From Psammoneis japonica (Eukaryota): 64,000 bases of DNA. Within the stretch, counting starts at the first letter, position 1, and each line of letters begins with the position of its first letter. The stretch covers positions 62,001 through 126,000 of the forward strand of contig QPGO01000078.1 in assembly GCA_008632985.1 (NCBI GenBank), given 5' to 3'. A program made the translations under genes and the position numbers. The notes beneath the pieces were generated by a model. The model saw only the letters and a program-made list of their open reading frames with translations, ran no database searches and had not been told where the DNA came from. Positions 4,400 to 35,730 of this stretch are shown here, in pieces.

Positions 4400-6800
4400 C
4401 TGTACGAGTAAGGGGTGGTTGTCGCGCGCAGTTTTCGCGGGCTGTGCGCGTGAGATCCGAATCGATTCTGGCGCCGTTGTCAGTATGTTGTTAGGTTTTT
4501 GCTGTCATCTTGGCGTGGTATCGATGGTCTCTGTGTGTAGTATGTTAGTAGTCGTTCCGTATGAGTGGTCTGGCGCGAGTGGGGGTCATTTAGTGTTTGT
4601 AAAGGGACAGACCAGCTCCATCCTCCCATTGAGGACGTCTTGAGCTGATCTGGGACGAAGGGATGCGTGATCCCCTGAGGCAACGGTGAGTCGCCCGCAC
4701 CAAAGTGATGCTCGTTCTCGCGTTAACATAGCCGCATACCTCTGAATATGGCTTTTGCCATTTCTCAGCTAGTTTTGCAGAGATTCTGCGCAGCGCTGCT
4801 TTGGCTTCCTTGCCAAACAGTCCGTCGCATGATGCGACGAAGGGAGTGAAGTGACGTCGTTGCTCAAGGCAGGGCTTGAGGTGCTTACGCTTTTTCTCTC
4901 GTTCGTGTTGTTCCAGAACTTCTTCCGGTGTCTTGGACAGGTGTGACTTCGCGTCCGTGTCCGGAGTGGGAACATCCATGATGGTGTCTGTCCTTTTGTC
5001 CCAAAATCCTTTGGACAAAAGATCTCCGCGGTCATCCTTGGACATGTTGGAGTTTGTGTTGCCTTGGGAGTTGTTGGAGGAGCCTGGGCTTCCTGAGATA
5101 TGACCAATGGGGTTAATGAGGGGTTCGTCGCGTACGCAGGAGGGCTTGAAGGCCGTTCCAACTAGGTCACCGAGGTCATCACGCACATCGTCGTGTCGTG
5201 AGATGACTGGGCCACCCTTTTTGCACTGCAGGGCATGGGCGATGAAGAATTTGCAGGCGCATCCATCGCAGTGCTCCGGGAGGTTGGGGGGAGTGCAGCC
5301 ATGTCGCAGATGGAGCGCGTCACGGAATTCTAGACAAGAGAGTTCCGTGCCGTTTATGATCGATGGGCACACCGACAGCCATGCTCCAGTGCTGGTGCCA
5401 TGCTTGACAGCTCTGGCTTTTAGGTCGGTTAGAGTCCGGAGGATTGTCTTGAGTTTCTCCTCGTGCATCTTGGCTTTCCTGTTGGCTGCTTCTTCCTTCA
5501 CTTCGCGCATGGTGTCCTTGTGGACTGCTGAAGAGAAATCTGAGCGGCCGCGGAGTGAGTCCATCACGTGAGAGCACGTGAGAGCACTTGCTTCATAGTT
5601 TTGGGATGCAGACTCCGTTGGACGAGGGATGGACAGTCCTGCAAATTTGATTGGGAGGGCAGATGGGGCCAGTCTCAGATCGTCATCTGCCAAGGTCTCG
5701 CCAATTGGTGCTGGAAGGAATTGGCGCTGGATCGCGCTCTCTGCTTCCGCAAAGGATTTGCCGCAGTCCTTTGCCACCCATTGGACGTGTTGCCACTGGT
5801 GTTGCAGGGACTTTTGAAGACCGGCGTGGGCAGTCTGCAGATGATGAATCACCACATTTGCGAGTCCTTGGACGACCGAGGTCCACGACTCGGCTTTCTC
5901 CGCTGGCCATCGGTCGCGTGCATCCGTCTCTCCGACGAAGCCTCCGAGGCAGCGGCTGCCTGAGCAGATGGTGAAGCCGAGGTCTCCAAAGCACGCCCTG
6001 GCGCTTTCCAGGTTGCGTTCTGGGACTGCCAGGATGTTCTTTTTGTCAGTGGCAGGGCAGCAACCATGCTTGGGTCCTTCGACTCGAAGAGTTAAGAAAA
6101 ATTCCTCAAGGATGTTGAATTTCCCAGCTGCAGCGGAGTCGTCGGCGCACCATGGCGTGAAAGCATCTTGGTGGATGTCATTCAACTTGTGGACTGGTGG
6201 GAGAAGGCCCAGTCCATGGGCTGCCATGCCAAGTGGGTCGCCCTGCGTGACACCTTCCTTGCTGAACAGTGTGAAGGTGGTGCCAAAGTGTCCGCGGACA
6301 ATTGGGATGCTCCAATGCTTGTAGCTGTTGAAAGTGAACCTGGCGCCGGATGGCCAGAGGTGTCTGACGTTGCACAACATCAGTGCTCTGTTCTCTTCGT
6401 TGAATCTGTTGGAGGCGTCAACGAAGAGGAAGCTGCAGTCATCCTCGAACTCATGCTGTTCCCAGAGGAGATTCATCGCATGAATCGCGCCTTCGATGCC
6501 TGCTTCTAGACCTGCACACAGCTGATCCGTTCCACAGGCTTCTTTGGCCTCTGCTCCAGCGACTGGGAGAACGGCTTTGGCCATGGCTTGTTGCCACACC
6601 TCTCCTGTGCCGACCGGGCGCACTCCCGGGTTTTTGTCTAGCGCGATGAGTCGCTTTGCCATGATTGCGCGGCAGGCGGCCCATGGGGGCGATTCATTGG
6701 CCAGCCAGTTTGTGAATGTGCGCAACGCTTCACGAAGCAATCCACTGGCTTCTCCACAGCGGAGCAGCCACTGCGACACTGCATTGGCATCGGATCTGCC
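4400..6800 (-). mobile_element. 5'-truncated CRE-like non-LTR retrotransposon (RT + zinc finger + restriction-like endonuclease), hypermutated; ORF 4590-6851
   Basis: RLIALDKNPGVRPVG, QLCAGLEAGIEGAIH, EGVTQGDPL, WCADD (YADD), CDGC..HALQCKKGG..RHD, RGDL, EKKRKH, FTPFV.S.DG; element ends approximate. Confidence 0.9.
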
Positions 6801-7407
6801 AAGCTTTGTGTGTGTTAAATTTGCCAAACATTTTTCACATGATCTCCTCAAGTGGACACCCCGTGCATAATTCTACGTCCTTTTCACGTGGGATTTCTGA
6901 TCAAATTTTCTGCCCAATTTGTTCCTGCGGGACTTGCTCAATCCTGTTAACCGCCCCCCACAAGACCCAACATGCGTCAATGAGGACACAATGAAAATGT
7001 CTTTCATGACTGCAAATCTACGACCACACGATTCCATGGCCACACAAACATGATGCAAGAACAAATCCATCACCCTGTCATTCCCTGCAACACCCTCTTG
7101 CGATGTGTGAATTGCCGCACCCGGAACCTTCCGCCCAATGCCAGAATGACGCACACATTGTTTTTTGTCTGCATCCCAATGGAAGCCGGTGCAACTGATC
7201 CATGCCTTTTTTGACTGTGTGTTCTTCTTCTCAGAATGCTCTTTGTCGAAAAAAAGGCATGCACCGAATCAGACCATGATGGTCCTTTTTTGTCACTGAA
7301 CAATCTCACCCCGTCCTTGCTGTCGCTGTTTTCGTTCTTGGAGATGAAGGACGGCATTCTTTTTTTATCATGTGTGAGTTAGCCGGGGTGGGGCCAGTTG
7401 GTCGCGC

Positions 7408-12454: not shown

Positions 12455-13837
12455 AGCACTGCTGTGTTTACATTGTTGCATCTGAAACAGAGATGTGAAC
12501 CATCTTTGCACTGTCTCATGTTGGTGAACTGGCCTTGGCAGGGTCAACCATCATTGCACTGTCTCGTGTCGATCGAGCTGGCCTTGGTTGGGTCATGTGC
12601 AATGGTGACATGGGCAAAAGCAACCCGCAAAGCACATTGCATGTTGCACGCACATGCAGCACGGTGGTGGACAGGAGTTCATGTTGGACGCAAATGGGGT
12701 GGAACAGTTGGTTTGTTTGTTTGTCGGCAAGTGCCCGAACCCAACATGAGTTGCTTTGTTGGACACAAACGGGGTGGAATGTTTAGTTTGTTCGTTTGTC
12801 GGCAAGTGCCCGAATGCAACATGAGTTGCTTCGTTTGCAGTTGTTGGCTTCCTTGCCACAACGGCGTCCAGCTTCCTCATTTTCTCATGTCGCTCTGCTT
12901 CCACCTGAACAGCTTTGGTGTCATCTGTTTGACTTTGACGGGATCTTTTCCTCACCGGCAACTTGTTCGTTCTAGACGCAAGGATGTCTTTGTGCTGCAG
13001 TGCAGCTGAATGAGAACACTTGGTTGTCTTGCAGAACTCTTCACAGTCGCCCATGTGAAGGGTGCGGCCACCCGGCAAATGTTTCATTGTCACATGGCAC
13101 AGACCCGTGGTGAGCTTGTACAATGCGTCATGCGAGTGCTTGCAATCGCCGACAAAGTGACCCCTCAGGGCATTCTTGCAGTCGATTGTTCGTGTTGGAT
13201 CGATGGGTGTCCCAAGGGACTCTTGGGTGTTCACCAAGCAGCCACCCTTGTGTGCAACCATGTCCTTCTCCAAATCCATCTTGCCAATTTCCGCAATGAC
13301 GTTTTGGGTGAGGGCCTTGTCCCAGTCGAGAATGCGCCAACCCTTTCCAATGGCAGAACACTCTTGCGTGTGTGTGTGCATCAACCCGGGCAATGCATCG
13401 TTGAGTGCACGATGCATCGAGACACCAGAGGGAAGCAGACCAACGAACTGATTGCTTCCTTGCATTTCAAGATTCATTCTGCAATGCAATGAAAGGCAAA
13501 CCGCGTGAGTGTGGAATTCAGCAACATGCAATGACAACAGAAAGGGCACGGACTCACCTTTCGTGCGAGTTGTTTTGGGGCACGCAGCCCGGCTCCCCGA
13601 ACGTGGAATGATGCCACCAAGAAAAATCTTTGTTCTCGACATTCTGGCAGTCAAACACCTCCGCAAGCTTTGTCTCTCCTGCCATTTTCCATGAATGAAT
13701 GACCACCTTGGCCATTGGGTAAAACAGCTCCCATGTCTTGCATCGATGAAGCTTCCTCACGTCCTTCATGGCCACCCTCATGAGGAAGCTTTGGTCTTTG
13801 ACGCACTTGCGACATTGTCCATTGTGCTTTCTTGTAA

Positions 13838-14659
13838 GAGCATCTTCGCCAGTGAGTCGTAAACATAAACCTATGTCCGTACGTCTTCCGATACGAATGA
13901 GATTCGCAAAAAATCATCATTTTCGGTGGATCGTAAGCATATTTTTTGCGCTAATAACCCTTTTCGAATTTACGATTCATGAAAGTGAATCGCAAATCAG
14001 GCCTTGGATACGATCCACCTCCAAAATCGTAAACGAAAATCGTAAATTTCTGGTACAAAAAGGGTGTAGAAATCCTGTAGAAAGTGCGTGTCACCATGAC
14101 GAAACGACAATCGACGCTTTCTTGATGAGAGGGCCTTACAGAGGCCCAACAATTAAGACTTTGTCGTATCTTATGAACTTACATACGGCCGCATCGAGAT
14201 ATGGGAGGAGAACCGACATATGGGGGGTTTATGGGGTCAGAAGAGAATAAGGCATAAATCGTGTGATAACATTTCGCTTGTTTTCGCGATGTAGAATGAC
14301 TTTCACAACATAGTAACACATAGACATATAATATGAATTATTCTCTATTGATAGACGTCGACATATCTTTGAATAGACGGTGATTTGTGTCGTATATTGC
14401 GTTCAAAGCCGCCATGGCGTCATGTAAAATTCAACAAGTCCGTCCTACCATCAGTTAGTTATTGATATACGTGTATGGAGTTGGTTGTTACCTCAACGTC
14501 TGCCCAACCATCGGCCGAATGTGAATACGATTGTGATCGACTGAAAATGATGGTCGCGTGCAGAATCGTAAACTTATACGGGGCAGTCTGTTCGCTTGTC
14601 CTTTTAGGTTATGTTCCTATGTTTATGTTTATGTTTGCGACTCACTGGCGAAGATGCTC
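13838..14659. mobile_element. PIF/Harbinger (Tourist-like) MITE, 822 bp, TAA target-site duplication
   Basis: 33-bp TIRs GAGCATCTTCGCCAGTGAGTCGTAAACATAAAC (one mismatch); TAA at 13835-13837 and 14660-14662; excision restores the MULE frame (..KFRTDFTRKHNGQ..). Confidence 0.9.
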
Positions 14660-15245
14660 TAAAGTCGGTCCGGAATTTACGTGTGAGGTGTGGGCAGCAA
14701 GTTGCAAAAGGATCTTCGGGAAACAACAGTTTGATTGAACGCGTTCTGGAATGAGTGCGAGTGATCCGAGCACAACCCGCTGCCAAAGTGCAAGTCATCT
14801 GTGCCAAACAAATCGAAAGCCGCCTTCTTCATTGCAAGCAGCAGGTGCAGCGCACCCTCTTCGTGCTCCGCTGTTGCAAGTGCACAACCGACAGGCTTGA
14901 ATGAGGACGAAAAATGTTGCTTGCCCCCCCTTTCTCATTTTGTGTGGTCCGTGACTCCAAAAACAATGGTCACAAAATCATTGCCGACCACACTGTGCAT
15001 GCCGTCTGTCGTTCCAACTGTTTTGAAGTCGAGGTCCTTGCAGTCGCACATGTTTCTGAGCAGCCCAAGGGACGAAAAAACGATTGTGTTGTCCATTGCC
15101 GGCAAGAATGGACCCTTGCTCCCCTTTTTCTTGTTGTGCAATTCCTCGGCATTTCTCTGACACAACAGCATCCTGTCTCGAACCTTTTTGGGAAGGTCGC
15201 CGAGGTCGGGGACCGGAAGACAAAACATGTCTGTGTGGGGCATTC

Positions 15246-16562
15246 GATGTGTTTTCATCCCAGGTGAGAAACGCGCATGCGGAGGTGAGACGTTTCGTCT
15301 GTCCCTTTTCCATCGCCGTGCTTTTTGTGCGAGCAAATCTGACTGGACTTTCCCCCGATTTTTTGTTTCTTCTTTCCACAGACATGTTTATTTTGAAAAG
15401 CCAGCCGTTGTTCTCATTGGTTGAAGGGTGCGTACAAGAAAAGCGCTGTCTCGAAAGCGGCATTTTTTGGAGTGAAGCTGACAGCCATCTGCTCGTTGTT
15501 GTCATTCTGGTGCATTTGAGAGACTGTTCCACTGTTTCTTTCACCAAATCTGACTGCTTTGAAAGAATGCACGCATTGTTCATTGTGTGAAGAGCTCATG
15601 CCAAAAAAGAACGGCGTTCTAACTCCATCATTTGCACAAGAAAAATCGGGGGAACTGACTTTGCACGTGATTTTTTTGCGCGATCGGCCATTTCAAAGAT
15701 CGACTGATTTGTCGACCTGTGTGGGACACTTGAGTGAATAAAACAACAGGATTGAAATGGCAGCGTCAAAGTTCAATGTGTGTCTGGTTATTGTGTGATT
15801 TGATGTGCCCAAGCAGAGTTAAAGATGAAATGTTGACAAAATTTCACCGCTCAAAATGACTGGTTCTATCTTAGAATAAAATAAAATGGCTGCAACGCTA
15901 AGATGTCGCTGATGGTGTTGTTCTACTTTACAACAATGAAACTGTCACACTTGCATCTGAGATTCTTTATCCTCACACACCCTCAAAACCGAACACATGA
16001 CGATTCTCTTGTCGGCAGCGAAATCTGATGTTGTCGCGCGACCCAAAAGCGTCGTCCATGACGACTCAAAGTGCGGACGATACATTGTAAGAATCCCAGC
16101 AACGTGTCATAGAAACATTCTTCATTGTCAGTGTCCGGTGTCAAGCAGATGGAGCAGCGCGTTGATGAGAATCCTACTTCGCAAGCTGAGGAAGAGAGAA
16201 AGAGGTGTCAAAAATGTCATGAGTCAAAAGGCCATCCATGAGGCACAACAAAAAACAAAGATCAAATTTTCAACCACATCATCGCATTGAGCGTTGTCTT
16301 ATTGACCTGTCTTGGCATTCTCACCTTCTCAGTCACAACATCCGTTGGTGCAAGAATGGACGAGTTCATGGCGACGGCATGGTGCCATTTTCGGTTTGCG
16401 CGAATTGTGGTTTGTGGTTCGAGACATGGAAAAATATATTTTTACTGTCATGGAGCTCGTTTTTTACTAAGATTTTTGGTGCTAAATGTACGTCTCATGT
16501 AGAAACACGTAGAAAACCTCGTGATGTGTCCAAAAGTTTCTCACCTAGGATGAAAACACATC
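15246..16562. mobile_element. Non-autonomous TIR DNA transposon, 1317 bp, 4-bp TSD ATTC (superfamily uncertain; Sola is one candidate)
   Basis: 27-bp TIRs GATGTGTTTTCATCC[C/T]AGGTGAGAAAC; ATTC at 15242-15245 and 16563-16566; excision restores the MULE frame (..SKEGMPHTD..). Confidence 0.85.
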
Positions 16563-18919
16563 ATTCCCTCTTTGCTGTGTCGCTTGCCCCGGCATCCGGT
16601 GTCGCACAGATCTTTGGCGAGTTCCATCATGTGAACCTCGGAGGACACCAAATGGGGCTTGCAGGTGGATGGAAGACACAGAGCATGGTTTCAACTGAAT
16701 GCAAGCAAGTCTTGTGTGTGCTTGATCTTGACCTTTTCAGCGGGATTGTCCCCGAGGGATGACTGGGGACGTTGATCGTTGCTTCTGTTGTTGGAATCAA
16801 GCAAGTGACAAATCTTGTTGCTCACCTTGTCCCTCAGTTCTTGGGTGGCAAACAATGGGGCGATGGACGGGTTTTCGGAAACTGACAGTTTGGCAACTGT
16901 GCGGCGGGTGATGTCCTTTGGTTTGAGGGACGGGTCGTCCTGTTTTAGCTTGTCCACGTGATCCTTGACCAGCGGCGGCAAACCTCGGGAACCAGTGGAC
17001 AGCATGTGGTCCACCCACGTCCGGCGCATGTGGGTGGAGTGATCTCGGAGGATGCGACATTTGCAGTGCTCCTTGCCGGGGAGCATCACTGTCTCAGCTT
17101 GAAAGGGACAATCCTTGTCAACCTTGCAGCTGTGTGTTGTCGTGATGGGCTGCAGCGGGTCTTGTCTCCTCAGGAATGTGTTGTTGTTTCTGTCCGTCTT
17201 TGCGTCTGGACCTGGAAAATGTTTTGCCTTGTTTGCGGACTTCATGAGGTCGCCTGGAACGAGGTCAAGGGCACGGCCGGAACCATGATCATGGCGGGGA
17301 ACCGGCTTGGGCAGAGAAAGGCTGCTGGCTGTGTCGGGGCCACACAGCTTGGGTGGAATGGCTCCCAGCCCATGAATTTTGGAATCTCCATTGACAGATT
17401 CTTTGCATTTCATGACGGAGGAAGATTTCTTTTTCAGAAAATCATCACAAATGGCAGCAAGGAGCTCGTTGCCCCTTTTGCCCAAAATGGAGTCTCCAAC
17501 GTGCTGGACCCGCTCAGCAAACGCTTTGGAGTCCGGAGCAAAAATGGAGCGATCCTCAGTGCTGATCTTGCGAGCCACGACCGCAAGACATGAATCTCTG
17601 ACGGGACCGGGACCCACCCCTTCAGCCAGAGATCGGAGGCGGGTGGCGGGAGATGGAAGGTCGCCGTCGCTGAGACAAGACATCAAAAGAGTGGTGAAAA
17701 GGAAAAACGCCATGGCAGATGTGCTGAAACGAAGGAAGCGGAACAAAAAGAGCATCACGGGGTGCCAGATCTCAGTAGTGTGACAAAAAGTTTCCCGCCA
17801 AAACATCAGTCCCACAAGATCCGCAGGTCCCGCAAATGCTGCCAATGACAGGCCTCATTTCCGTTGATGGAATCAGCTTCTTTTGCCATGAACAAGTTGG
17901 GGAAAATTCAAACAAAGTTTGTCAAACAAATGTTGCCAATGCTGCCGAACGAAGGGCAAGATCGGGGGCGGGTCGACTCGATTAATTTCAAAAACAAAGG
18001 GCAGCAGCAACTCGCTTTCACAAACCCAGACACGAGAGCAAGTGAGGCATCTGCAAGATGACGAGAACGAGAGGAAATGCATCGCAGAACAGGTGAGCAA
18101 CAGGCGACGGCGTGGATCAACCAACACAAACAAGAGCTGATCCTGCGTTGTCACGTCTTTCATTGCACAGGCCGAAAAGGAACGGATCGCCGCCTGCAAG
18201 AAGCGTCTCTCGCACACAGCACTTTTTCCACCCGAGGCAGCAACCCAGGATGGCGATGGTGCTGAGACGACTGCGACGTGACTCCGAAGGTCGAAAGCAA
18301 GGCGCGATGAGTGAGATTGTCAGAGGGAGGGGCGGGTCTGTGTCCGCTGAGCCTCAGACTCCTGATGCCGCCACTGGAGGAGCCGATGGAAGGGCGCGGG
18401 TGACCGGAAGATTGACCAGCGGGGTCCGTCGCCAAGCCACTGGGAAATTCCTCAAATGTCCACGACACCAACCAACTGTCCACAAGGAGCTGTGGCACCT
18501 TCCCAGAGAGTCAAGGGGAAGGAAGATGAAGGACCTGTGGGCATGATGGGAGGGCGAAGAGCGAAGCCACCACGAATGGACAGATGATTCTTGTTTGTGC
18601 TGTTTGGCTAAACGGCCATGATCTGGGAAAGGCAGAGCAGGGTGGAACAATCGTGTGATGAAGGCACAACATCGCCGTTTGTCGGGACCGATTGAGGCAA
18701 GACGAGATTGCATTTTGTTGACTTTGTGCCCAAAAAACACCGAAAAATTGCACTCACCATCATGTCTGGTTGCATTGAATCCAATTTTTGAATGTTTCCA
18801 TTGGGGTGTCTTTCGGTCATTTACATCAAATTTTTCTTAAATGTTGTGATGGCCCGCAGACACACGAATGACCACATTGCAGATGCACATGGCAAGCTCC
18901 AGCAGCAGTTGGTCATGCA

Positions 18920-19620
18920 CGTTTGGGTTCGATGTGATGAGCAACTGTCATGCCACCCTGCAGCAGCCATGCCCTGCAGGAAAAGCTGTTCGGTGGTGGG
19001 CGCGCACGCGATCAAGCAGAGAGCAGAAGCAACAAAGCAAAAAACATGGCATGGGGCGAGACGTTGTAAAGTGACACGACAACAAGCAATGAGAAGAAAC
19101 CCAACTTGACCCAGGAACACAGCACACAAATGCATTCCAACAGCTTTGATCTCATCTGGAAACACCAGCTGGCAGATGAGTGAATGGCGTTTGCGTTGCT
19201 TGCCATGGTGTTGTTGTGTGTTGTCGTGCCGCTGTCATTGCGCATGAAGGACGGGGATCCATTTTGCCCACAGTGACTCTGTTTTGCCAACAGCAGACAT
19301 TTTGCTGTGTGCAATCAGAGGACATTTTGAGAAGTGCTTCATGACAACCCTGTTCGGACCGTCAAACAGAGTTTTTTTTATCCAGATTTCAGAGTCCTTG
19401 GGGGTGTTCTGTCAGACTTTTGGGTGGGTGCATCTGTGAATTAAAGGCACAAGAAAATTCAATGACATGCAAAACACCAAGAGACCAACACAAATTTGTC
19501 TTCCATGTGGACCACGTAGATTGTGCACCGGCAGAAAATCCACCGCATGTCAACTCACTCAGCAGCGGTTCTGCACATGTGCTGCTCACACCTCACACGC
19601 GCACACACACCTGCACAGTC
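18920..19620 (+). repeat. ~700-bp dispersed repeat, copy 2
   Basis: Collinear similarity to 7408-8085. Confidence 0.85.
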
Positions 19621-19685
19621 CAGTGACCGCACACACGTGCACAAGATGAAGGACAAATCAGCGATTGTGCAAGCAAGCAAGCAAC

Positions 19686-20180
19686 CCACTCTCCATCGTG
19701 AGTCCATGCGTCGACCGATGCACGCACTTCGCACATGTGCCCAGTCACCACTCTCCATTGTGAGTCCATGCGTCGACCGATGCACGCACTTCGCACACGC
19801 ACCCTGACCACAGATTTTCAAAAAGCACAGATTTCCCATTGTTCAGCTAAACCTGGGGTTGGTTTTTTCCAAAATTTGCCAAATTGTTGCGATCTTTGAA
19901 GAACCCTTCTGCAGGCCCGGCGTGGCAAAAGCAGGCCCGGTGCGGTCTGCGTGCACTTTGCGCACTGCGCACATTTGTGCCACTGAGGGGGGAAGACAGA
20001 AGGGGTCAGATTCCAGATTTTCCATTCTAAAATCTCACTGATTTCATGCGGCCCCCAAAACAATCTTGCAGATTTTCAAATCGACACAGATTTTCCATGA
20101 TGATCAGGGCACCTGGTCACCACTCTCCATCGCGAGTCCATGCGTCGACCAATGCGTGCGCTTTGCACATGTGCCCGGTC
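19686..20180 (+). repeat. Three 62-bp tandem units, the second interrupted by a MITE
   Basis: CCACTCTCCATCGTGAGTCCATGCGTCGACC at 19686, 19748 and ~20120. Confidence 0.85.
19802..20109. mobile_element. Hypermutated Tc1/mariner-type MITE related to 58313-58628; left TIR partly deleted; TSD reads CA/CA
   Basis: Right end CACAGATTTTCCATGATGATCAGGG vs CACAGATTTTCTATGATGATCACGG; shared internal TTTGAAGAACCC, ACATTTGT, CAGATTCCAGATTT. Confidence 0.75.
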
Positions 20181-21153
20181 ACCTGATGCTGCAGACTCTC
20201 AGAGAATTCAGACAGATGATGTGCCAGGGACGTGTGTGGCAAATGTGTTCCGGCGCTCTTGCGGATTTTGAGATTCCGGTGTGTTTCTGCACACGCAAAA
20301 AACTTTCTGCACAAACTTCTGCACAAAACATGCCAGAGGGCACTGGAGCAACCATCTGTCTGCATTCTTGATGGGCTCCAGTCCCAGGTGAGACTCCGTG
20401 TGACATTGGGCCCACAGAATTCTGCGTGCGAGCTCCGCAGCAAATTTGTTGAGCAATGAAAATGCAAATGATCGCCAACAGAAAAAGAGGCAATTTTACG
20501 AACGCATCTCCTCCTCCACACTTGCAGCACATCATCAACAGTTTGCTCGGGTGTGTTCTCCAGACATCAAAGAATGCACCCAGAGCATTTTCATTCTTGT
20601 GAATGTTGAAAATGGAAAGCCTTTGGCTTTGCAAAATGGGGAGCATGAAACAATTTCGTAGAATGTCACACGCAGAAATCTGCATGCGCGACATGCCACG
20701 CGATCCAAAAAACTCTTGATGTCACAGTGCAGCAGTGCTGGGTCCCACCCAGAGCTGGAGCGCATCTCTCTGAGAGTCTGTGACGTGACCGGGTGGGGTG
20801 TGAGAAGCGCGCACTTGTTGGTTGACGCGCGGAATCACGATGGAGAGTGCGAGCAAACCGTGGGACCAACACAGTGCTCACCACAAAAATCGATTGATCG
20901 CAATGATGCCGTCACACTGTTCATGATGCCCATTCCAGGTGATGAACATCGCAGCACACTGGATCTGACAAAGTGAGCAAATGCTGCCATGGCAGCTGAA
21001 AATCGGGTGTGAGACAAGACAGAGTGTTTTGAGCAGCATCAGCAGGTTCTAGAATTGTGAGATGTTGCGCCACTGGGACCGCTGATCAAGCGACAGTGGA
21101 CCAATGGCCAACAGCATGTAAACTGCCCATGTTTGTGACAGCATGTCAGCATT

Positions 21154-21157
<4 letters not shown>

Positions 21158-21223
<66 letters not shown>
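21158..21223. repeat. (CA)33 microsatellite
   Basis: Direct reading. Confidence 0.97.
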
Positions 21224-21225
<2 letters not shown>

Positions 21226-21799
21226 GCAAGAGAAAATGGTTGGGTGCACAGAAACAATGGCTGCTCAAGAAGCCAACCAGTCCCCCCAGAATGACAAAGA
21301 GTCTCTCTTTTTTGTCAAAAGGCATCATGAATGATTCTCTGTTCAAGGGTGGGAAGTCCCTTGTTTTTGGGGGCATTTTGGAAATTTCGCTGGAAAAATG
21401 GACAAAACAAGACAGCATTTTTTGCGAATGCGTGCGATTCATGGAAAAATGCTCAAACGGCTTGAGCGCGAATTCTGAGCATGCAAACAACACGACAATG
21501 GCTGAGGTGCCGTTCGTTGAATGCAGTGGAGGTGGGGAGGCCTCCAACTTTCTTCGTGAGTTTGTCACCCATGTCAAACACGACACACCCTGAAAAAAGT
21601 TGGAGGCTGCCCCACTGAGTTTTCGAGAACGAACGGCATTTCGGCCATTGTCGTGTTGTTTGCGCGGTGAGCGCCGAACGCACTGGGATTTTTTTCCACA
21701 ATTGCATCACAAATGATTAAAACGTTTGTCATTTTTGATGCTTTTTACAAACACATGTCAAAAACACAAGGGAGTTCCCAGCCTCAAAGCTGCAGAAAA

Positions 21800-22480
21800 G
21801 AACACAGTGGCTCAACATTGTTTGTCAATGTGGGGCAATGTTTTTTCTTGTGTTTGCCTTGCTGGGGTCCAGAAAAACCATCACATTGTGGCAAGCACAC
21901 ACTCCTCAGATCCAGCTGGAGCCGTGGTTTCCATTGCTTGATTTTCACAATTTTGAACAGAGCCAAAGGGAGAAGATGGCTTTGAAGGGAAGAAAATGAC
22001 AGAGCTTTGTTGAAGCCAAGAACAGCCAGGTGCAGCTGACCGAACCAACCTTGTGGCACTGCATCAGACTCCAACAAGTCCATGTTTTGCAGCAAAAATG
22101 GCTGGAGAGTCATCAAACTCATCCTGGCTTTGTTTCCACAGAGGCGCTTGGCTCTAAACAAGATTCATCACATCACATTCTTGTTGCCATTTTTGAGAGC
22201 AACTCAGTTGGGAGGCAACTGCGCTGACATTGTCAGAGTGTCCATGTGTCCACACAGCCTGAGCTTGCAGCTGGTTGAGAACAGAGTGGAGGAAAGCACT
22301 TCAATGGCAGCAGCCAAGTCAATCATGCTGGCAGCTGGGTCCAAAGGAGCACCAGCTTTTTTTGCATCACTGGAACAATTTGAGTGTGTGTTGCATCGCC
22401 AAAAAAGCATGTTGTGGGTCTTCCTGCATGGGGCAAGATGATGTTCAAAAGGAGAACAAAGGGATGATGGATGGTCAATG
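21800..22480 (-). repeat. Degenerate coding-like dispersed repeat, copy 1 (copy 2 at ~35060-35730)
   Basis: Shared GCCTTGCTGGGGTCCA, GGTTTCCATTGCTTGAT.TTCACAATTTTGAACAGAGC, GTCATCAAACTCATCC, CAATTTGAG..TGTG.TGCATCGCCAAAAA. Confidence 0.8.
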
Positions 22481-23269
22481 AAAGTTGGCTCCTCCTTTGT
22501 GGTGGGAACTCTGGACATGCAGTGAGGAGGTGTGGAACCTGGGCTGATTTGTGCTGACGTGCACGCAAGTGTCAACTTTGAGCTTTCCCCTCAACTTGCC
22601 ACCAGCCAGTTAAAAAAGATTTCATTGTCAATTGACAAGCTTGCTGCCAGCTGAAGTGCTGTCAAATGCACATGCACAGAATGGCGTGCAACACACCACA
22701 AATGAAAATCTGTGATCTTGTCATTTTGGGCTCTTGCACTGAACAATGTGGAGGCAACATCATGATGATCTGCGCATGACTTTCTGCTGTTGTCACAACA
22801 TGAGACAACTGGGGTCTTGAGTTTGGCTGCATTCTGTGTTCTCAAATCATTGTTTGTCCTGGCTGTTCTTCCCTTGTTGGTGGGTGCTCTCTGTTCAATT
22901 GAGTGACAACACACAAAGCCACAATTTGCAACATGCCAGTTGTGTTGTGATTGCTGCAGCTTGCACCCACAATGTCAGTTGTGTTGCAAGTGCTGCAGCT
23001 TGCAGAGATGATTGTGACATGGGAGCAGATGATGCAGGCACTTGCCTGTCATGTGATGGTGGTGCAGTGGGCAAACAGAAAGAAGTGCCCTTGCAACCAG
23101 GGAAACATTCTAAAAATTGGAGCAAATGCCCAGAAGCACTTTCTCAGCAGTGTTGCACCACTGGCTGGATCCCAACATCTCATTGCATTGCTCCTTGGAG
23201 AAGCACATGGCGCTTTTCTTTCCATCAACTTGAGCAGGGTGTTGCGCCCATCTGACAGCATGCACAAAT

Positions 23270-23850
23270 TTAATCTCTCTTCAGTGGTTGCTGAAGATGC
23301 AGACCATTTCTGGTCTCAACTCTGGAAAGCATGACATTGTGCACCCAGTTCTGGGTGCACACCTGTGGCTCCAGCTGTGCACAAGCACATTGTTTGCACC
23401 ACTTCCTTGCAGCTTGTGCCCGGTTGTTGCATTGTTCATTGCATTGGCAGTTGTGTTTTGCATTGGGTCTTTGATGCAGGCTTTGAACATGGTTGATTTG
23501 GGCTTGAGTGAGAAGGTTGGTGGGCCAGCACTTTTGTTGCTGTGTTTGAGCACCACATGATCCACCTGGGATGCTGTCACACCTGGAGCGAATGCTCCAC
23601 AGTCTAGAACAACCAGTGACGAACTCTCTCCCAGTTTCAGCATGACTTTCACTGCAGTTGCCTGTGCTCCACTTGCAGTGCTGCTGACCACATTGTCATT
23701 GTGTGGTGTCATCACTCTGCACCCCACATGTGTTTGCAATGCTGGGTCAAGTCTTCCTGACTGCACAGCTGCAGCGCTCTCCCCGCAGTTCTTCCAGAAC
23801 ATTTTGCACTCAACAAAAGGTCCACCATGCCTTCAACACTTGACAGCATC
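23270..23850 (-). mobile_element. PIF1-like helicase C-terminal remnant, probably from a Helitron
   Basis: RLDP.L...GCRVM...N, NNATTGHKLQG, and in a shifted frame VMLSRVETRNGL (SF1 helicase motifs T.HK.QG and YV.LSRV). Confidence 0.7.
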
Positions 23851-26800
23851 AATGTGAGTCTGTTTGTCAGCCCCTCATCAGCACTTGCAACTCTGAGACC
23901 CATCATTGTGTGGCAAAAGGTGGCAGCACACAAAAAAATGATGGTGGCTCATCATCTCACATTGGCTGATGCTGCGCCACCAAATCATCATGGACTGCAT
24001 TCCATTCAGCAGCACCAGCAGCAGTGTCATCACCCTGGTGGCAACATTGATGGATTTGAGGATGCATGCGAAGATGCTTGCAGTGCATTTGAAGATGAAG
24101 CTGGTTCTCCAAACATGAGTGCTGCAATTTCATTCAAGGAAAACTCATTTTGTGAACCCCGTGAGCAGATGGAAAACAACTGCATTGACATCTTTCATCA
24201 ACAAGCTGTCTCACCATTGCCAACCTGCTCCTCTTGGTGGAACAAGCTGCCACATGGATTCAAGATCTGGGGACAATTTTTGATGACATGAGCACAGTGC
24301 AGGTGGAAAATGCCACTCTTCTTGACACCTTGACCGTGGCGGGCACAGATGTGCAAGACAATCATTCACAGAGAGGGACAGCAAGGGAGCTTCATTCTGT
24401 GTTTGCAAGAATGAAAATCACTGACATGTGTGCAGCAGCCAAGAGACCCAGCATGTTGGGGAGGCTCCTCTTTGCCATCATCCAAGGCCTTCTTGAGGCT
24501 GCCGCTGCTTGTCATTGTCAATGGATCATTTCAAATCAGCAAACCATGATGCAAAGAGATCCAAGATGAAGACATTTGCATTGTCGTCAAGCAGTGCTTG
24601 TTCCATGTGTGCAGCCGGCAATTTGGAGCCATCAAGACATCCCAGCAGGACAACTTTTGTGCCAGTTTCTGAGTCCACAAATTTGGCTGCCAAGCAACTT
24701 TGTTTGTCAGGGTGGGGATGAAGCTTCTTTTGCCTCATCTCATCACTTTTGGAAAAAGATGAAGAAGCGTGCAGACTTGAAGAAGAAAAGGCACCTCTGC
24801 TGCTGCCATGGCAACATTGAGGTGGATGCACAGGCAACAACACGGTGCAAAAAGGTGCTGTGAGCAGCAAACAGGCCAACAACAACTGAGCCCTTGTTGT
24901 TCATCCATGTGAAAACATTTTTCAATTGCCAAAAAAAGACCTGACACATCATGTTTCTAGCTTTGAAGCTGCTTTGCATGCTTTGCTTGCATTGTGCATG
25001 CGCTGCTGTGAATTTGGAAACAACAACAGTGTGATTTCTCACCCAAAGCTCCAACCAGCACTTTGCACAGATGTCTGTTCCACATGGAATGTGGCATTAA
25101 AAAATCTCATGTTGGCTGTTGTCTGAGTCATCTCTGTCATTTGATCAAATCACACACTCTCATGGTGCTGTGCTGTGGCGCACACTGCAATCTGTGAAAA
25201 TTGGACATTCTTGAAGGCTGCTGCATTTTCTGTGGGATCCATGTGCACAAAGCTCAAATTTCATGCCCAAAGCAACAACTGCCCCTTTGTGCAGGAAATC
25301 GTGCAATGGAGACCAGGACAATTAAAAAATGGGTGACAGCGCATGTGCACAAAAAACAGAGGAAAGATCCCAAACATCAAAAGATCCATGACATCAAGCA
25401 GTTGTGAGAAAGACATGTGGCAAGGTTGTTAGAGACAATGAGATCAAAGCAACTCCTTCACTGTCAGTCTGAAGAAGCAGCTCTTAATGTCACACATTTG
25501 CACTGCAGGCTTGTGCACAAAACCAGCCTTGAACCCAAAGGTGAGCCACAGTCACATGCTTGTTCCACATCTGTGCTTGAGTTGACCTCAACACCATGCT
25601 TGATGCATCCCAACAGGCTCAAGCTTTCAATGTTGCCCATTTTTTTGATGGAGCCACAACAAGGCAGCTGTGGGAAGTGAGCTCACCCCAGATTTCAGGG
25701 ATTGTCTCGTGCTTTTTGGCTTTTGCCAAAAGAGCGCAAAACTTCTCATCATTCTGATGTCTGGGCCAGTTTTGCATTTTCATTGCATTGCACTCCAAGT
25801 TTGCATTTGTTTGCTGCAAGGTTGGCACATCTCTGAAGACAAAGACAGTCAAGCTCCACACACTTTCAGCAGATTTGCAAGAAATTCAATGTGTGGTGTG
25901 GGGACATCCAGAATGAATTTAGCCAGTGGCTTAAAACCTCCTGTGGAATTCCACACATCAGTCCTGGCATGCCAAACATTTGAGCACAATGTCTTTTGAT
26001 GCCACCCCATTGTTTTCTGTTGTGTGCATGTGCGCACATTCAGTCTTTTGTTTTTCAGCATGTTTTTAGAAGCTCAAAAGCTGGAGGTTTCACAGTGACA
26101 AATGTCACAGTTGGCAACAAACCACCACAGATGTGATGTGTTTCCAGTTTCAACAAAGTGTGGAAGGCAAGTTTTTTCTCTGCAGAAAACATGCCATTGT
26201 CCCAACCTGACATGTGCCTGCACAAGATTTCAGCCACTGGCTGGGGCCCCAAAATCATTCCCAACTGGTGCTTGGCCATCAATGCACCCGTCTGCACTGA
26301 GCGGCACCCGAACTTTGGTGTCACAAATTTTGAGATGCCCTTTTCCTGCACCATGGCAAAGAGCCCCCTGACTCACCCCGGGCTCATGATGGGTGCAACT
26401 GTGAGTTCTCCACACAGCACACCCTTCAGTGCAAGAAGGGCGGGCCAGTCATCTCTCAGCACAATGAGAGCGATCCGTGATGAGCTCGGCTGCCTGTGCA
26501 CTTTGGGACTCCCACTGCTTGAGTGTGGGTGGGCCCAAGCAATTCTAAAAACCGTCAACGGCCGTCACTGTGTAATTTGGCAGCATTTTGGCACTCTGTG
26601 TGTGAGGCATTTATGCAGAAATTACACATGTACAAACATTGGGGGAAACGAGCGCAGAGAAGAGACGACGCGAGCGAAGCACGAGCGGAGAGACCGACAA
26701 TGATGCAAGTGCCGGAGAGAGATGCAAGGAGAGCAATCCAACGACATTGCAAGGGCGCAAAAGAGAGGAAAGATCCATTTGAGTGAGCACCACATCTTCA

Positions 26801-28239
26801 ATAAAAAGAACAAAGCAAGAAGACATTGGCATGCACAAAAACTCACACAAAGAAGCACGGCACCAGCGCCTGCAAAATGACCACATCTGCGGTGACATGG
26901 AACAACACAAGGAGGTGAGAACATGCTTTTCTGCAAATGCAATGCAACAACGAGCAAACGACCAACAGAAACTCACCAGCAGGGTCAAAACTTGGGGTGC
27001 CTGGATCGTCAACGGTGGGAGGAACGATGGATGAAAGAGAGTCTGCTGGTTCCACGGAGCAGGACGACAAAAGCAGGCGGCAGATCGGCATGAGCAATGG
27101 CAGAAAGTCGGTGCTTGGGATCGAGTGACTCGTCCAGTCCACAAAAGTTGTGGCAGCAGCTTGGAGAACGGAGGCAGCGCCATGGCAGGACGGCATGGAC
27201 CGGGACAGAAGCAGCGCGCCATGGTGGAATGGCGACGGAGCCAAAAACGGTGACGGCGACGGTGCAGACCCATGGACTTTGATGTCCCCATCTTCAAGTC
27301 CCACACATCAAGATGCGGGACAAGGAGGTTCAAGGTGAGCGCCATTGCGAACGAGAATGGGGGAAAACGAGACTTGGTTCCGTGAGAATCAGAACTCACC
27401 ACATTTTGAGTCATTCTGACCCATTCTAGAGCCGTGGCTCACTCACACAGCACGACCCAATGGCGCACAACACTGTCAAGCAAGGCAGGGGTCGGGAGGC
27501 GGTGTCGCACCGGTCAAATCGGCCAAAAGCGCCATTGTCGGAGGGAGTGGTGGTTGTCAATCGGCCGCTCGGAAAAATTATGAGCCATCAACTCGACCGT
27601 GCACCGTTCGGAGTCGAACAAAATTTCTCGGTACAAAATGTGCACAGATGTGCGTCAGTGTAAAAATCGTGTAGAAGGGTTGTAAGTAGAACCGTTGCTC
27701 TCTCTATGTAGACTGCAAGGATTCTGCCGTTAAACCACACCAACATGCACAATTCTGCGTGGTCGATTTGAATCAATCCCACCAACGTTTTTGAATTTCG
27801 ATCGTAATGACGGCTTTAGGTGCTGAGATGAACACAACATGTGAGTTTGAATTAAACATCATATGAAGCGTTGACAATTTTGAATGATTGCGCGACTGCC
27901 AGTCGGCACCAAAAACCGTCACCTGTGAGCAAACCGCAATGCTTTGGTGCTTCAGTCTTGCACATGAAAGCGCTCCCCAAGCAGTTGACTGTCGAATTAT
28001 ACATGTAAAATCCTCACAGCGGGAGACCCTACACACGCTCCCGTGTGCACTCAATGCGCCTCGGTTATGACCTTCTCGTTGGGTTGCACAATGGTGAGTA
28101 GCCCTCCTCGTCGTCCACCCTCCTCGCTGGGGTCGTTCTCGCCATTGTGCAACCCGCCTCGTCGGTCTCCACCTCATTGCTTGGAACCTTCTCATCGGGT
28201 TCGCGGAGCTGAACCCTCCTCGTCGGGCTCCACAAGTGC

Positions 28240-28950
28240 ACAGGGCGCGTGCCTGCAGCACTCAAGCCCTCCGCAGTGCATGACAAACCTCTTGTCAACC
28301 CTGCTGGTTGCACCTCCAGAAGCCCAACTGTTGGCAACAAGTCCAGAGATGGCGACTGTGGAGATCTTTCAGCCAGAGGCTTGTTTGACAGAAGCACAGA
28401 CCTGGTCATGGATGTTGAAGCAGCTGACATGGATGCGCCGTCTCATGCTTCCAAGACCCCTCCTGAACAAGTCTTGCTGGACCACAAGAAGCAGAAGAAG
28501 CATGAGCATCTCAAGTCATGTCTTGAGTGATGCCATCAATTCTCTCCTGTGGTGGTGCCATGCGATGGCCTCCTGACTGGAAAGGAGGCACAAGCCGTCC
28601 TCCTGCATTGGACATCTGGAAAGACATCGAACAAGTGGCAGAGACCATGCTCCAAAGTGTGTGGCTTTGTCAACACACAATTCAGCACAGCTGTTGTCAG
28701 AGCAACTCATCTTTGTTTGAGATGCTCACGAATTCCCTCTTCTGGGATCAGCTCCAGATGTCCCTGCCATGTGTGCGCTGGGAGGATGGCGTTGGTCTGT
28801 CCTTGTGTCGATGTTGAATCGATGCCAATGCCACAACAGCACCAGGTGAGATGCAGTTCTGTTGAAGTGGCTCAAGACGACATCCATTGTTCATGAGTCA
28901 GCACAGTCACACCCCCGCGAGACGATCGAATCGGCACCAGACACGATTCA
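28240..28950 (+). mobile_element. 3' fragment of a second CRE-like non-LTR element, frameshifted
   Basis: KPSAVHDKPLVNP, GDLSARG, KWQRPCSKVCGFVN, VRATHLCLRCSRIPSS, WEDGVGLSL match the C-terminus of the 4590-6851 ORF. Confidence 0.85.
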
Positions 28951-29223
28951 AATTCCGCACCATAGATTGTGTGGCTTGCAAGTGCCATCAGCTGTGGTCT
29001 CATGTGCTGTCAGCGGGGCCTCAACTCTGCACGCAGCTACTTCCATCTCGCTCGCTCGCTCCAAAGGCACTCTCCCACCCCTGTGGCAGGGGAGAATGTG
29101 GTGATGTCATGGTCATGTGGCAGCCCACATCTCATTCATCACATTTTCACACAAATGTCCTCACATTTGTTCACGCATTTGTGCACAAATGCCAACAGCA
29201 GCAGGAAAAATCCTGAACCATGT

Positions 29224-31319
29224 TCTCCCCTAAAACTCTGACCACCAAAAACCGAGGGGTCGGAAGCGCACTTTTGGGAGCTCTTTTTCTCCGCACAAAA
29301 AACACGCGTTTCGTCGACTCGACCATGACGACCTCCCGTTCTTCATCCCCCACACCACCTGACGTGTCCCTGCCTGCCACATCTGATGCGGCAGTCCCTC
29401 CTGCATTGGCCGGCACCGTTGCACCTGCTGTCGTTACCCAAACACAGCCGATTTGCCATCCGGAGGATTTGGGCTTCTGTTCGCCAGATCCTGTGCCTGA
29501 AACACAAACACAGCGCCGTGATTGGTCTGCTCCTGTCATTGCATCCATGGAGAAACTGGATTCTCGTTCGCATCGCCGTGTTGTGGAAGGCACTGATGAG
29601 CCTTCTCTCAAATGGTCTGGGGTGCAGCTCCGAAACCAGGTCAAAAAACAAAAGCAACAAACCGACGTCAAGGTTCAGTGGGTGTGGCAGAGGAGCATCT
29701 ATGACAGGAGGCATGGTGACAACCTTTCTCAGGATGATCATTCCCAAGCAGAACCTTGTCTGTCTGGAGGTGATTGAGACTCACCCAGAGCCCAGCGGAA
29801 CCAATCGGAGCCAACAACAAGTGTCAAGATGAACCGCTGCAACATGTGAAGGAGGACGCAGCCAATGGAGTGCGGGCAGAGAAGGTGCCGGCATGCAAAG
29901 TGGCAGCATGGCTGTCGACAAGGCACTGGTTTTGAAGGTCTGACAGTGACAAACATGGTGAGCATTTGCCAAAAGCACGTTGCTGCCTGCCTCCATTTTA
30001 GCAACACACAAAAACAGTGTGTTGTGCATCACATGCAGAATTCAAACGGCAAGAGTGGCCTCTTGTGGAATTGCACACAATGACCCAGTCCTGGAAAATG
30101 GAGCAGTGTCCAAGTCACATGCACCATTTGAAACCTTGCCAAGTCGCCTGCAAACAAATGCCAATTCGCTGACCTCTCCAACTTGAAACTAAAAAACTGT
30201 GAAAGCATGCCTGCCATCTGGTTGTTGTCAGGTTTCTAATTTACAGAGAGCTGCACAATGTGTCTGTGTGTTCTAAAGATTAGACCACACTCGAGAGCCA
30301 ACCAAGAGGCACCATTCATGTCCATTGATGTGTCGTCCATCAGCAGGCCGTGGTTGCGTGGGTTTCCTGGTCCACCATCATCCGTCATCCATTGTGTTCC
30401 TTCCAAAGCAAAAACAATGACAGTGTCAACAGTGACTGCAGCAGCAAGGGTGGGATTGACAGTGTCGGGCATGCCAGGGGACCGAAACGCAGGTGCGGCG
30501 TTGGAATTTGTGATGGCATCTGTGGGAGGCGGCGGGGCAAGAATGAAAGAAGTGTGAGTTGCAAGCATTTCGTTGTGGACGTCATTGGCAAAAGACAACA
30601 ACAGCATCAACAGCACCTGCGGCAGCAAGGGCAGGAGCAACAGTGTCGGGCATGCCAGGGGGCCGAAACGCAGGTGCGGCATTGGAATTCGTGACAGCAT
30701 CTGTGGGAGGCGGTGAGGCGAGAATGAAAGAAGTGTGAGTTGTTGGCATTTCATTGTGGACGTCATTGGCAAAAGACAGTGACAGTGTCAACAGCACCTG
30801 CGGCAGTGAGGGCAGGAGCAACAGTGTCGGGCATGCCAGGGGGCCGAAACGCAGGTGCGGCATTGGAATTCGTGATGGTGTCTGTGGGAGGCGGCGGGGC
30901 GAGAATGAAAGAAGTGTGAGTCATTGGCACTTCATTGTGGACGTTGTTGGCAAAACACAACAACAGCGTCAACAGCACCTGCGGCAGCAAGGGCAGGAGC
31001 AACAGCATCGGGCATGCTGGGGGCCCGAAACGCAGGTGCGGCGCTGGAATTTGTGATGGCATCTGTGGGAGGCGGTGGAGCATGCAAACAACAGTGTGAG
31101 TTTGCAGCATCTTGTTTTGTGTGCATCGCACCCACGAGAACCGGAATGATGACATTGCCTGTTGTGTCAGTGTCACCAGTGACGGTGTCAGTGGGATCGG
31201 CATCCTGGGAAGGCGATGGGGAAGAACCACGAGGCATCGTGTTTTTTGTGCAGAGAAAAAGAGCTCCCGAAAGCGCGCTTCCGACCCCTTGGTTTTTGGT
31301 GGTCAGAGTTTCAGGGGAG
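29224..31319. repeat. ~83-bp inverted repeats (29224-29306 / 31238-31319) enclosing 2.1 kb; possible TIR element, no TSD found
   Basis: CTCCCCT.AAACTCTGACCACCAAAAACC.AGGGGTCGGAAGCGC.CTTT.GGGAGCTCTTTTTCTC.GCACAAAAAACACG in both orientations. Confidence 0.75.
30415..31080. repeat. ~181-bp tandem repeat, about 3.6 copies
   Basis: GTCGGGCATGCCAGGGG.CCGAAACGCAGGTGCGGC.TTGGAATT recurs near 30465, 30646, 30826 and 31008. Confidence 0.9.
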
Positions 31320-33835: not shown

Positions 33836-35059
33836 TTTCCTTGAAATGGACGCTTTTACGCCGATTGAAACACCGTTGGTGATTGGGGCGATTTTCTTTC
33901 AGCAATGAGTATACGATGCCGGCAGTAAGGTGAAACTTGGGATAAATAATTGTTTGGTTTTTTCATTTTGAGTTTCCACAGTTCTACCTCCGTCCCTTCA
34001 GAAACCGTTTTTCAAATTCGTTACAAAGCCATCAAATCAAGTACATGTCAAAAGTGCCGTTCAAACCGGTTCAAGTTTAAGAAGGACACTGCCTTCTCGT
34101 GTCCGTGATTGGACTGTTTGGAACTAATTGCAGTGGACAGAGTGACAGAGGAGTGATGAAAGAGATGACAGAACAGAGTGCAATGGGTCACATGACACAG
34201 ATTGGGCCAGAACCCATTTTAAAGGACTGGGTGTTACCATTTGTTCTTGTCACTGATCTGCTTCATCACGAGATGACTTGTCTCTTTTTTTGTCCAGAAC
34301 CTGTTGATTGCTGAAACATCAGTGGCACATTTCTCTGCCGATCTGGTCATTCGATCAGCTGGTCACCACCACTGACTGAAAAGGTCTGGTCTGAAATGCA
34401 AACTCTGCATGGGCAGATGCAACTGCAGATGAAGGAGCCACAAAATGCATTGGATGCACCACTTGTGTCATGGCCGCACAGCATGTCATTGTCACATTAA
34501 AAAAAAACATGTTGTCTGTGTGAGCCGTGGAGCTGGGGAAACAATGCATGCTTTTTGCAGAAGCATCACACTTTCTTCCTCGGTGAAGGCTGCATCACAA
34601 AGGTCCAAGTTAGCACATGTTTCATGCTTTTGAGTCTGACTTCTGCACCACAGTGTGGCCAAAGTCAGCCAATGAATCTCACTCATTTTCATGCCATCCT
34701 TGGACTTGGATGTTCTCCAAAGTCAGCCACCACATCACAACACAGCTTTGAGCAACAAGCACAGGCCTTGAGTGGCAGCAAACTGTGTGGTTTTCTCTGT
34801 GCTGGGTTGTCAAGGTTCACAAGTTGCAACACAGGCTTGAATTCTCCACTGCTGACCAGCTGTCAGTCAGGTCTCTCTAAGCACATGTTGAACATGTTGC
34901 TTGCTGCTGCTTTTGTGGATTCAGGAATGGTGCCTTTACCAAAATCTCCAGCACAGAGGATTGCTTGATCTTTTGTTCCCTCTTGAGCACCAAAGAGCCT
35001 TCTCTTTTTTGTTCAAAGGTGTCATGAATGATTCTCTGTTCAAAGCTGCAAAAAAATGA

Positions 35060-35730
35060 AAACAGTGGCTCAATGTTGTTTGTTGACACAGGGAGAACAA
35101 TTTTGTTTCTTGTGCTTTGCCTTGCTGGGGTCCACAACAACCATCACATCATGAGCACACACACTCTCCCCAGATCCAACTAGAGCCATGGTTTCCATTG
35201 CTTGATCTTCACAATTTTGAACAGAGCAAGAAGATGGCTTTGCAGGGCAAAAAATGAAAGAGTTCCATTGAAGCCAAGAAAAGTTGAACACAGCTGACTC
35301 AGCCAGTCTTGTGGTGCTGCATCAGAATTGAGCAAATCCATGCTTCAAAGCAAACATGACTGGAGGGTCATCAAACTCATCCAAACTTTGTTTCCATTGA
35401 AGTAAAAAATGGAACTTCAACAAGGATTCATCACTCTGCATTCTTGTTGCCATCTTTGAGAGCAGCTCAGTTGGGATGCAACTGTGTTGTCATCATCAGT
35501 GTCCCCACATCGAGCTTGCAGCTGGCTGAACAGTGGAGTGCATGCAACCAACTTTTGCAAAGGACAGCACTTTAACAGCAGTCAAATTCATTGTGTTGGC
35601 AGCCAGGTTCAAAGGAGCACCTGCATTTCTTGCATCAAAGCAATTTGAGCATGTGCTGCATCGCCAAAAAGCAGTTTTCCAGTCTGGCAGAGTCATCTTC
35701 AGAAGGGACAAGCAGACAATGGATGGTCAA
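35060..35730 (-). repeat. Degenerate coding-like dispersed repeat, copy 2
   Basis: Collinear with 21800-22480. Confidence 0.8.

Follow-up and report, generated by a model that had tools for sequence, protein, structure and literature searches.

Probable in-place rewriting of TA dinucleotides in a small DNA transposon within TA-depleted repeat DNA of Psammoneis japonica

Genic stretches and TA-depleted blocks

The window, which is the whole 64-kb stretch of DNA analyzed here, consists of genic stretches alternating with TA-depleted blocks, as determined from 1-kb and 200-bp profiles; all evidence comes from one sample. The genic stretches are at 1–5 kb, 31.3–34 kb, 37–40 kb, 46.5–49 kb, and 55–64 kb (22,200 bp in total), and encode, for example, a PP2C phosphatase, a kinase with EF-hands, and a DegP-like protease, the best named relatives of the latter being from Bacillariaceae sp. 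(57% identity) and Nitzschia inconspicua (55%). TA occurs 42.6 times per kb in genic DNA, at an observed/expected ratio (o/e) of 0.60, with CA/TG at about 1.15 and CG at 0.96. In the depleted DNA, totaling 40,975 bp, TA falls to 6.2 per kb (o/e 0.099), CA and TG rise to an o/e of about 1.7, and the CG o/e is 0.53. The depletion is confined to discrete nongenic tracts, whose sharp boundaries match the ends of elements. One such block spans 14663–31300, with a per-kb TA o/e of 0.01 to 0.27 and edges that are sharp at the 200-bp scale.

Within the depleted DNA, CG o/e ranged from 0.06 to 0.96 and TA o/e stayed at or below 0.33 throughout (Spearman 0.38, 37 one-kb windows). The sub-blocks at 22001–26000, 34001–36000, and 52001–54000 had a CG o/e of 0.06 to 0.25, and equally TA-poor sub-blocks at 5–21 kb still had 0.64 to 0.88. 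These differences among equally TA-poor sub-blocks indicate that CpG loss and TA loss are partly uncoupled.

Pfam searches were run on 174 open frames window-wide (19 + 125 + 30). No transposase domain was found among them, and none of the 122 frames starting in depleted segments carried a transposon domain. Very long open frames, of up to 760 codons and without Pfam match, occur on both strands of the depleted blocks, at 4590–6872 and in many more places; most simply, they are a by-product of lost TAA and TAG stops. Weak Pfam matches in a depleted block, to IF-2B at 40167–40517 (E = 4e-5) and to PhyH/2OG-Fe(II) oxygenase at 42907–43473 (E = 2e-6), may represent rewritten copies of host genes. 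A tandem array with registers of roughly 60 to 180 bp occupies 47600–48200 in TA-normal DNA (TA o/e 0.98); its open frames overlap on both strands and have no Pfam match.

Two related elements and the repeat that hosts one of them

Elements of the Tc1/mariner type insert at TA and leave a 2-bp duplication, and the Stowaway-like MITEs of this superfamily are short and noncoding, with terminal inverted repeats and a TA duplication. Two related copies of such an element were found on the forward strand of the window. Copy A (19802–20109, 308 bp) is TA-depleted and lies inside the depleted block at 14663–31300. Copy B (58313–58628, 316 bp) has a normal TA content and lies between two minus-strand genes, with the start of the protease gene on one side and the end of its neighbor on the other. 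The ends of copy B match at 27 of 28 positions, giving terminal inverted repeats of 27 to 28 nt with one mismatch, and TA stands on its left (58311–58312) and right (58629–58630). Copy A is flanked by CA on the left (19800–19801) and on the right (20110–20111), an exact 2-bp duplication and presumably a former TA target duplication. Its right end is intact, whereas its left inverted repeat is 19 bp short and agrees with the right end over only the first 6 nt; further internal segments are missing as well. The two copies thus resemble Stowaway-like MITEs in their length of about 310 bp, their multicopy nature, their lack of coding capacity, their terminal inverted repeats, and their 2-bp duplication (TA at copy B), but depart from them in the CA/CA flanks and damaged left repeat of copy A, and the window supplies no matching transposase.

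Internally, the element is made of repeated ACAGATTT modules. Blastn and a right-end motif search detected only these two family copies in the window, where the motif occurred three times against 0.01 expected; a metagenome scan with the same motif yielded two loci, which were chance matches to unrelated DNA. The DNA bordering copy B (58289–58312 and 58629–58652) is weakly inverted-repeated, and both flanks contain TACCGTA. This similarity, about 62% over 24 nt by hand count, was judged to be low-complexity target DNA and not part of the element. The empty sites of copies A and B have CG-YA-...GGT in common, a possible extended target preference (n = 2).

The initial annotation had paired copy A with copy B as related elements inside and outside a depleted block, and every sequence and flank that it quoted was found in the DNA: CTACGTA in copy B versus CTGCGTG in copy A, TACGTACATTTGTAC versus TGCGCACATTTGTGC, TTCTATGA versus TTCCATGA, and TA/TA versus CA/CA at the borders. 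The kinship was significant as well. Blastn gave two aligned stretches at 70%, one of 108 bp (E = 5e-11) and one of 67 bp (E = 9e-7), and a global alignment scored 171, compared with 27.8 ± 11.4 and a maximum of 76 for 500 Markov shuffles (z = 12.5). Nevertheless, the pair is a weaker control than had been supposed. Only 176 of 246 aligned columns (71.5%) are identical, 37 of the 70 mismatches are transversions, and the ends differ in concert, being CCCTGA..TCAGGG in copy A and CCGTGA..TCACGG in copy B. The concerted difference shows that the two copies came from different source elements, and they represent different sub-families. Given this distant kinship, many of their differences are older than the insertion, so that copies A and B are not a clean before/after pair and cannot by themselves date the TA changes.

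Copy A interrupts a host repeat of 62-bp units on the forward strand. Unit 1 (19686–19747) reads TG at the insertion site and then CCCAGT; unit 2 runs for 54 bp (19748–19801) up to copy A and resumes behind it at 20112–20119 with CCTGGT; and unit 3 (20120–20181) again reads TG, followed by CCCGGT. Excising copy A together with one CA gives back a unit 2 of exactly 62 bp, which establishes a duplication of 2 bp. An inverted-repeat search also located part of a host unit in inverted orientation, on the minus strand at 20809–20849, suggesting that copy A is nested in a larger element, of which the host units may be the end repeats. Summed contig depth was 2,400 to 7,400 at 19474–19584 and about 6,400 at 19696–19732, compared with about 55 to 70 for single-copy DNA; judged by depth, the host unit family has roughly 100 copies. 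The stretch at 20362–20500 belongs to a very abundant repeat family, with a summed depth of 86,000 to 394,000 and as many as 109 contigs that differ at a single place.

The host repeat had been read as pointing to an ancestral TA at the insertion site and to an ancestral CCTAGT next to it. The three units vary at 12 columns, always by transition, and 10 of these columns are at dinucleotides where some unit reads CG; CG would therefore be an equally good ancestor of the TG/CA/TG insertion site. As for CCTAGT, it must be abandoned: a single CpG transition leads from the CCCGGT of unit 3, which had been overlooked, to CCCAGT and another to CCTGGT, whereas starting from CCTAGT would take four changes, with one TA hit twice. 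What survives of the proposed TA-to-CA conversion is the exactness of the 2-bp duplication at copy A and the TA/TA at copy B, the family being represented in the window by these two copies only. From the TA-target rule and the one TA-flanked copy, it is probable that the CA/CA flanks of copy A were once TA/TA, in which case both TA would have stood in GTAC, a context of the most susceptible class.

Fate of TA sites, direction of change, and flanking bases

Copy B contains 21 TA, including the two flank TA, and 13 of them fall in gap-free columns. None of the 13 was kept in copy A, where 6 read CA, 4 read TG, and the other 3 fall in columns of poor alignment; for the other dinucleotides of copy B, 135 of 220 were kept (Fisher p = 7.9e-6 versus TA). 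The changes thus hit TA and yield CA or TG. CA and TG of copy B were mostly kept in copy A (14 of 17 and 10 of 16, respectively), indicating that the traffic is one-way. Only two TA remain in copy A, both in CTAA, and the YTAR class makes up only 1 of the 21 TA of copy B. Each copy matches its neighborhood in composition: TA o/e is 0.10 in copy A and 0.10 and 0.05 in its 1-kb flanks, versus 0.67 in copy B and 0.64 and 0.67 in the flanks of the latter. CA and TG outcomes were not significantly clustered by strand along copy A (5 runs in 13 events versus about 6.5 expected, hand calculation).

A search for sequencing runs covering the stretch returned one DNA run and no RNA run among those listed. 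Contigs of this DNA run were aligned to 19400–20500 at an 80% likeness threshold. Over copy A, up to eight contigs of at least 80% likeness were present at a time besides the locus's own contig, differing from copy A at single places, and among those listed, three related contigs differed from copy A by 45 letters in 298 positions, 37 in 285, and 23 in 151, being about 85% to 87% alike. At four places where copy A has C, T prevailed in the relatives, with depth shares of 402/553 at 20036, 423/608 at 20045, 360/455 at 20056, and 292/455 at 20061, each based on five to six contigs. All four sites read CA in copy A, which means TA in most relatives. At least four TA-to-CA changes thus appear to be private to copy A when compared with most of its closer relatives, and among the differences listed, the direction of change, read indirectly, is from A:T to G:C with TA ancestral. 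Further majority differences listed were CpG-type at 19923 and 20024, another transition at 19958, and transversions at 19852, 19868, and 20039.

The initial annotation had placed the mutations in situ after insertion. The private changes, and the match between copy A and its flanks, bear this out in general, but not for the timing at the very sites it quoted (19948–19970 and 20096), which had no majority alternative letter among the differences listed. No contig at the locus bridged an empty site at the exact borders of copy A. The contig joints listed, such as the one from 19780 to 20192 with 34 intervening letters, are paralogues of the host repeat that have diverged; at the insertion site one of them reads CA, which decides nothing. 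In-place erasure of TA from copy A is thus well supported in general and demonstrated at a few sites.

Two other elements set limits to the influence of the neighborhood. An inverted-repeat element of 822 bp (13838–14659) has retained 59 TA in surroundings that are almost TA-free, with 2 TA in the 835 bp to its left and 1 TA in the 583 bp to its right. PIF/Harbinger-type (Tourist-like) elements are marked by a 3-bp TAA/TTA duplication and terminal inverted repeats. The 822-bp element likewise has TAA duplications, both intact (13835–13837 and 14660–14662), and arms of 37 nt that are 95% complementary and differ by one TA-against-CA. It is a young or immune insertion: either the rewriting of the block was over when it arrived, or the process works in episodes or requires a trigger that this element does not have. 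A further element with 27-nt arms, at 15246–16562 within the depleted block at 14663–31300, is flanked by ATTC on both sides (15242–16566) and is partly mutated, one arm reading CCCAGG and the other CCTAGG. Its left 555 bp hold 5 TA versus 24 in its right 762 bp, so that the edge of a mutated tract seems to fall inside it; being rewritten at one end only, it suggests that mutated tracts need not respect element borders. Dependence on genomic neighborhood, as originally proposed, is therefore visible in copies A and B, which mirror the TA o/e of their flanks, but the unmutated element with its 59 TA inside a depleted block indicates that neighborhood alone is not sufficient. By the same token, the suggestion that loss of TA and TAA removes target sites is arithmetically true (6.2 versus 42.6 TA per kb), yet the 822-bp element did insert into a depleted block.

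To measure the effect of flanking bases, the share of TA among TA+CA+TG was calculated for each flanking context in depleted versus genic DNA. This share dropped about 100-fold for ATAT, GTAT, and ATAC and about 20-fold for GTAC; relative to its genic value, it was 0.78 for TTAA and 0.007 for ATAT. RTAY occurred 13 times in depleted versus 279 times in genic DNA, and YTAR 113 versus 156 times (chi-square p = 4e-35). TA loss is thus context-dependent, with RTAY nearly erased and TTAA nearly spared, a rule that is new here. Furthermore, the ratio of the products YTGY+RCAR over YCAY+RTGR was 1.31 in depleted and 0.99 in genic DNA (p = 1.6e-6), a skew expected if the changing A precedes a pyrimidine. 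At single sites this TAY strand rule was weak in a hand check, with 3 sites fitting and 4 not: of the four mixed-context sites common with copy B, 2 fit and 2 did not, and of the four sites private to copy A, 1 fit, 2 did not, and 1 lay in a refractory context.

Rewriting in place has to be weighed against other histories. Copy A might have descended from an already TA-poor master, so that most of its CA/TG sites and the sub-family differences predated insertion and few changes were local. Such descent would agree with the ends differing in concert, with the 71.5% identity and 37 transversions, and with the lack of a majority alternative among the differences listed at 19826, 19948, 19952, 19966, 19970, 20067, and 20096, where copy B has TA. 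It is unlikely, however, in view of the at least four changes at CA sites private to copy A and of a TA level equal to that of the flanks, and a CA/CA 2-bp duplication is not inheritable from a master copy. The flanks, for their part, might never have been TA, if the element had inserted at a non-TA dinucleotide of a host site that was CG or, through CpG decay, CA. The CpG-type character of 10 of the 12 variable host-unit columns would fit, as would the remaining two columns, which are the TG/CA/TG flank site itself and are also explained by a CG ancestor, and the retention of CCCGGT in unit 3. We nonetheless hold this origin to be improbable, because copy B has TA/TA, a duplication of 2 bp is characteristic of Tc1/mariner-type elements, which insert at TA, and RTAY in the block around copy A has been almost entirely converted.

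The polarity might also be the reverse. RIP, as known from Neurospora and other ascomycetes, turns CpA into TpA in repeated DNA, which raises TA and ruins mobile elements; a RIP-like C-to-T change at CpA could have made the TA of copy B, copy A being the original, and comparison of two copies alone gives no direction. This reversal is close to refuted. Copy B shows neither a TA excess, its o/e of 0.67 being the level of the neighboring genes, nor a deficit of CA (1.20) or TG (1.03), which disfavors a RIP-like origin of its TA; the anomalous DNA is that of the depleted blocks, and the relatives of copy A carry TA. In addition, the internal modules read TACAGAT in copy B and both CACAGAT and TGCAGAT in copy A, for which an ancestral TA is simplest. 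Finally, a special mutator might be dispensed with if the depleted blocks were low-complexity or foreign DNA, intrinsically rich in CA and TG, and if the likeness of copies A and B came from shared simple modules. There is indeed a (CA)33 run close to copy A, along with CA-rich stretches, and the element is modular. Such an account is nevertheless very hard to credit, as it is met by the alignment z-score of 12.5, by substitutions specific to TA sites, by sharp block edges coinciding with element ends, and by a TA survival that ranges roughly 100-fold with the flanking bases.

Known systems and a candidate mechanism

The pattern shares with RIP its dinucleotide-specific transitions confined to repeats, its sharp contrasts in composition, and the ruin of mobile elements, but runs the other way in chemistry and direction, with TA erased and CA/TG going up. 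RIP itself was rejected, as the repeats show the opposite of TA excess and CA/TG loss (TA o/e 0.099, CA/TG about 1.7). CpG decay, by deamination of 5-methylcytosine, also gives TG and CA and is at work in the same blocks (CG o/e 0.53 versus 0.96 in genic DNA), where it covers 10 of the 12 variable host-repeat columns and the changes private to copy A at 19923 and 20024. It explains the host-repeat variants but was rejected as the sole cause, because it cannot convert into CA or TG the sites that read TA in copy B and in the relatives of copy A.

The closest known case is that of Bigelowiella natans, for which a preprint describes TpA-to-TpG/CpA hypermutation of integrated giant-virus and virophage DNA, measured de novo; only some lines were mutated, and an ADAT2 homologue was proposed (Mettrop et al., bioRxiv 10.64898/2026.01.13.699255). 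The two cases agree in several respects: TA alone is the target and becomes TG or CA depending on the strand, with a bias from A:T to G:C, and the effect is confined to tracts of non-host-like DNA, in which TpA depletion and CpA+TpG enrichment are clustered. Activity in some lines only also fits the unmutated 822-bp element found here, as an episodic process would. The two cases differ in host (a chlorarachniophyte there, a diatom-like stramenopile here) and in target, which is viral inserts in the preprint and repeats and small DNA transposons in the present window. Depletion reaches a Rho of 0.45 in the viral region reported there and is near saturation here (TA o/e 0.099), where TA loss is accompanied by CpG decay. 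The mutations were measured de novo in B. natans, whereas ours are read from sequence comparison. A flanking-base rule, by which RTAY is lost and TTAA spared, is present here, and none was found in the main text of the preprint. Among the titles and abstracts listed by literature searches, none described TA erasure in a diatom.

In the reading that we consider probable, copy A belongs to the small DNA transposons that insert at TA; it entered the host repeat, duplicated TA, and was later rewritten where it stands, as was the DNA around it. The agent would be a process that works on DNA rich in repeats and probably silenced, in tracts with sharp edges and beside ordinary CpG decay. It would have changed 5'-TA-3' to CA or TG by A:T-to-G:C transitions on one strand or the other. 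The two duplication TA of copy A, in GTAC and thus in the most susceptible class of context, would both have become CA, and copy B, between genes, would have escaped. The most likely chemistry would be enzymatic deamination of adenine at T-A in silenced repeat DNA, giving hypoxanthine, which is read as G; a preference for A before a pyrimidine would make RTAY the best site and TTAA the worst. We infer both the enzyme and the link to silencing.

Among adenosine deaminases, TadA/ADAT2 and ADAR normally act on RNA. The natural site of bacterial TadA is U-A-C, and ADAR prefers G as the 3' neighbor. Both kinds are similar in acting on an A preceded by U/T, and the U-A-C site of TadA would fit the TAY preference, whereas the 3' preference of ADAR does not match. 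A bolder reading, which we offer tentatively and would not yet favor, is that diatoms possess a DNA adenine deaminase guided by chromatin, or an equivalent system that modifies thymine, with RTAY as its recognition site and the tract-wise removal of TA from silenced repeats as its effect. It would be a genome defense with the reverse chemistry of RIP, shared with the chlorarachniophyte system or convergent on it.

For annotation, depleted blocks that have lost TAA and TAG stops yield long spurious open frames and are a trap for gene callers, and transposons within such blocks become hard to recognize, no transposon domain having been found in 41 kb here. The loss of RTAY and sparing of TTAA provide a concrete, testable specificity, and a natural DNA adenine editor with a short sequence rule would be of interest for base-editing work. 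If diatoms do have such a deaminase, heterochromatin would as a side effect lose TA and TAA landing sites for mariner- and Harbinger-type elements and be stripped of TAA and TAG stop codons. If a TA-directed A:T-to-G:C mutator also works in diatom repeats, targeted DNA editing as a defense would be wider in eukaryotes than RIP and APOBEC suggest.
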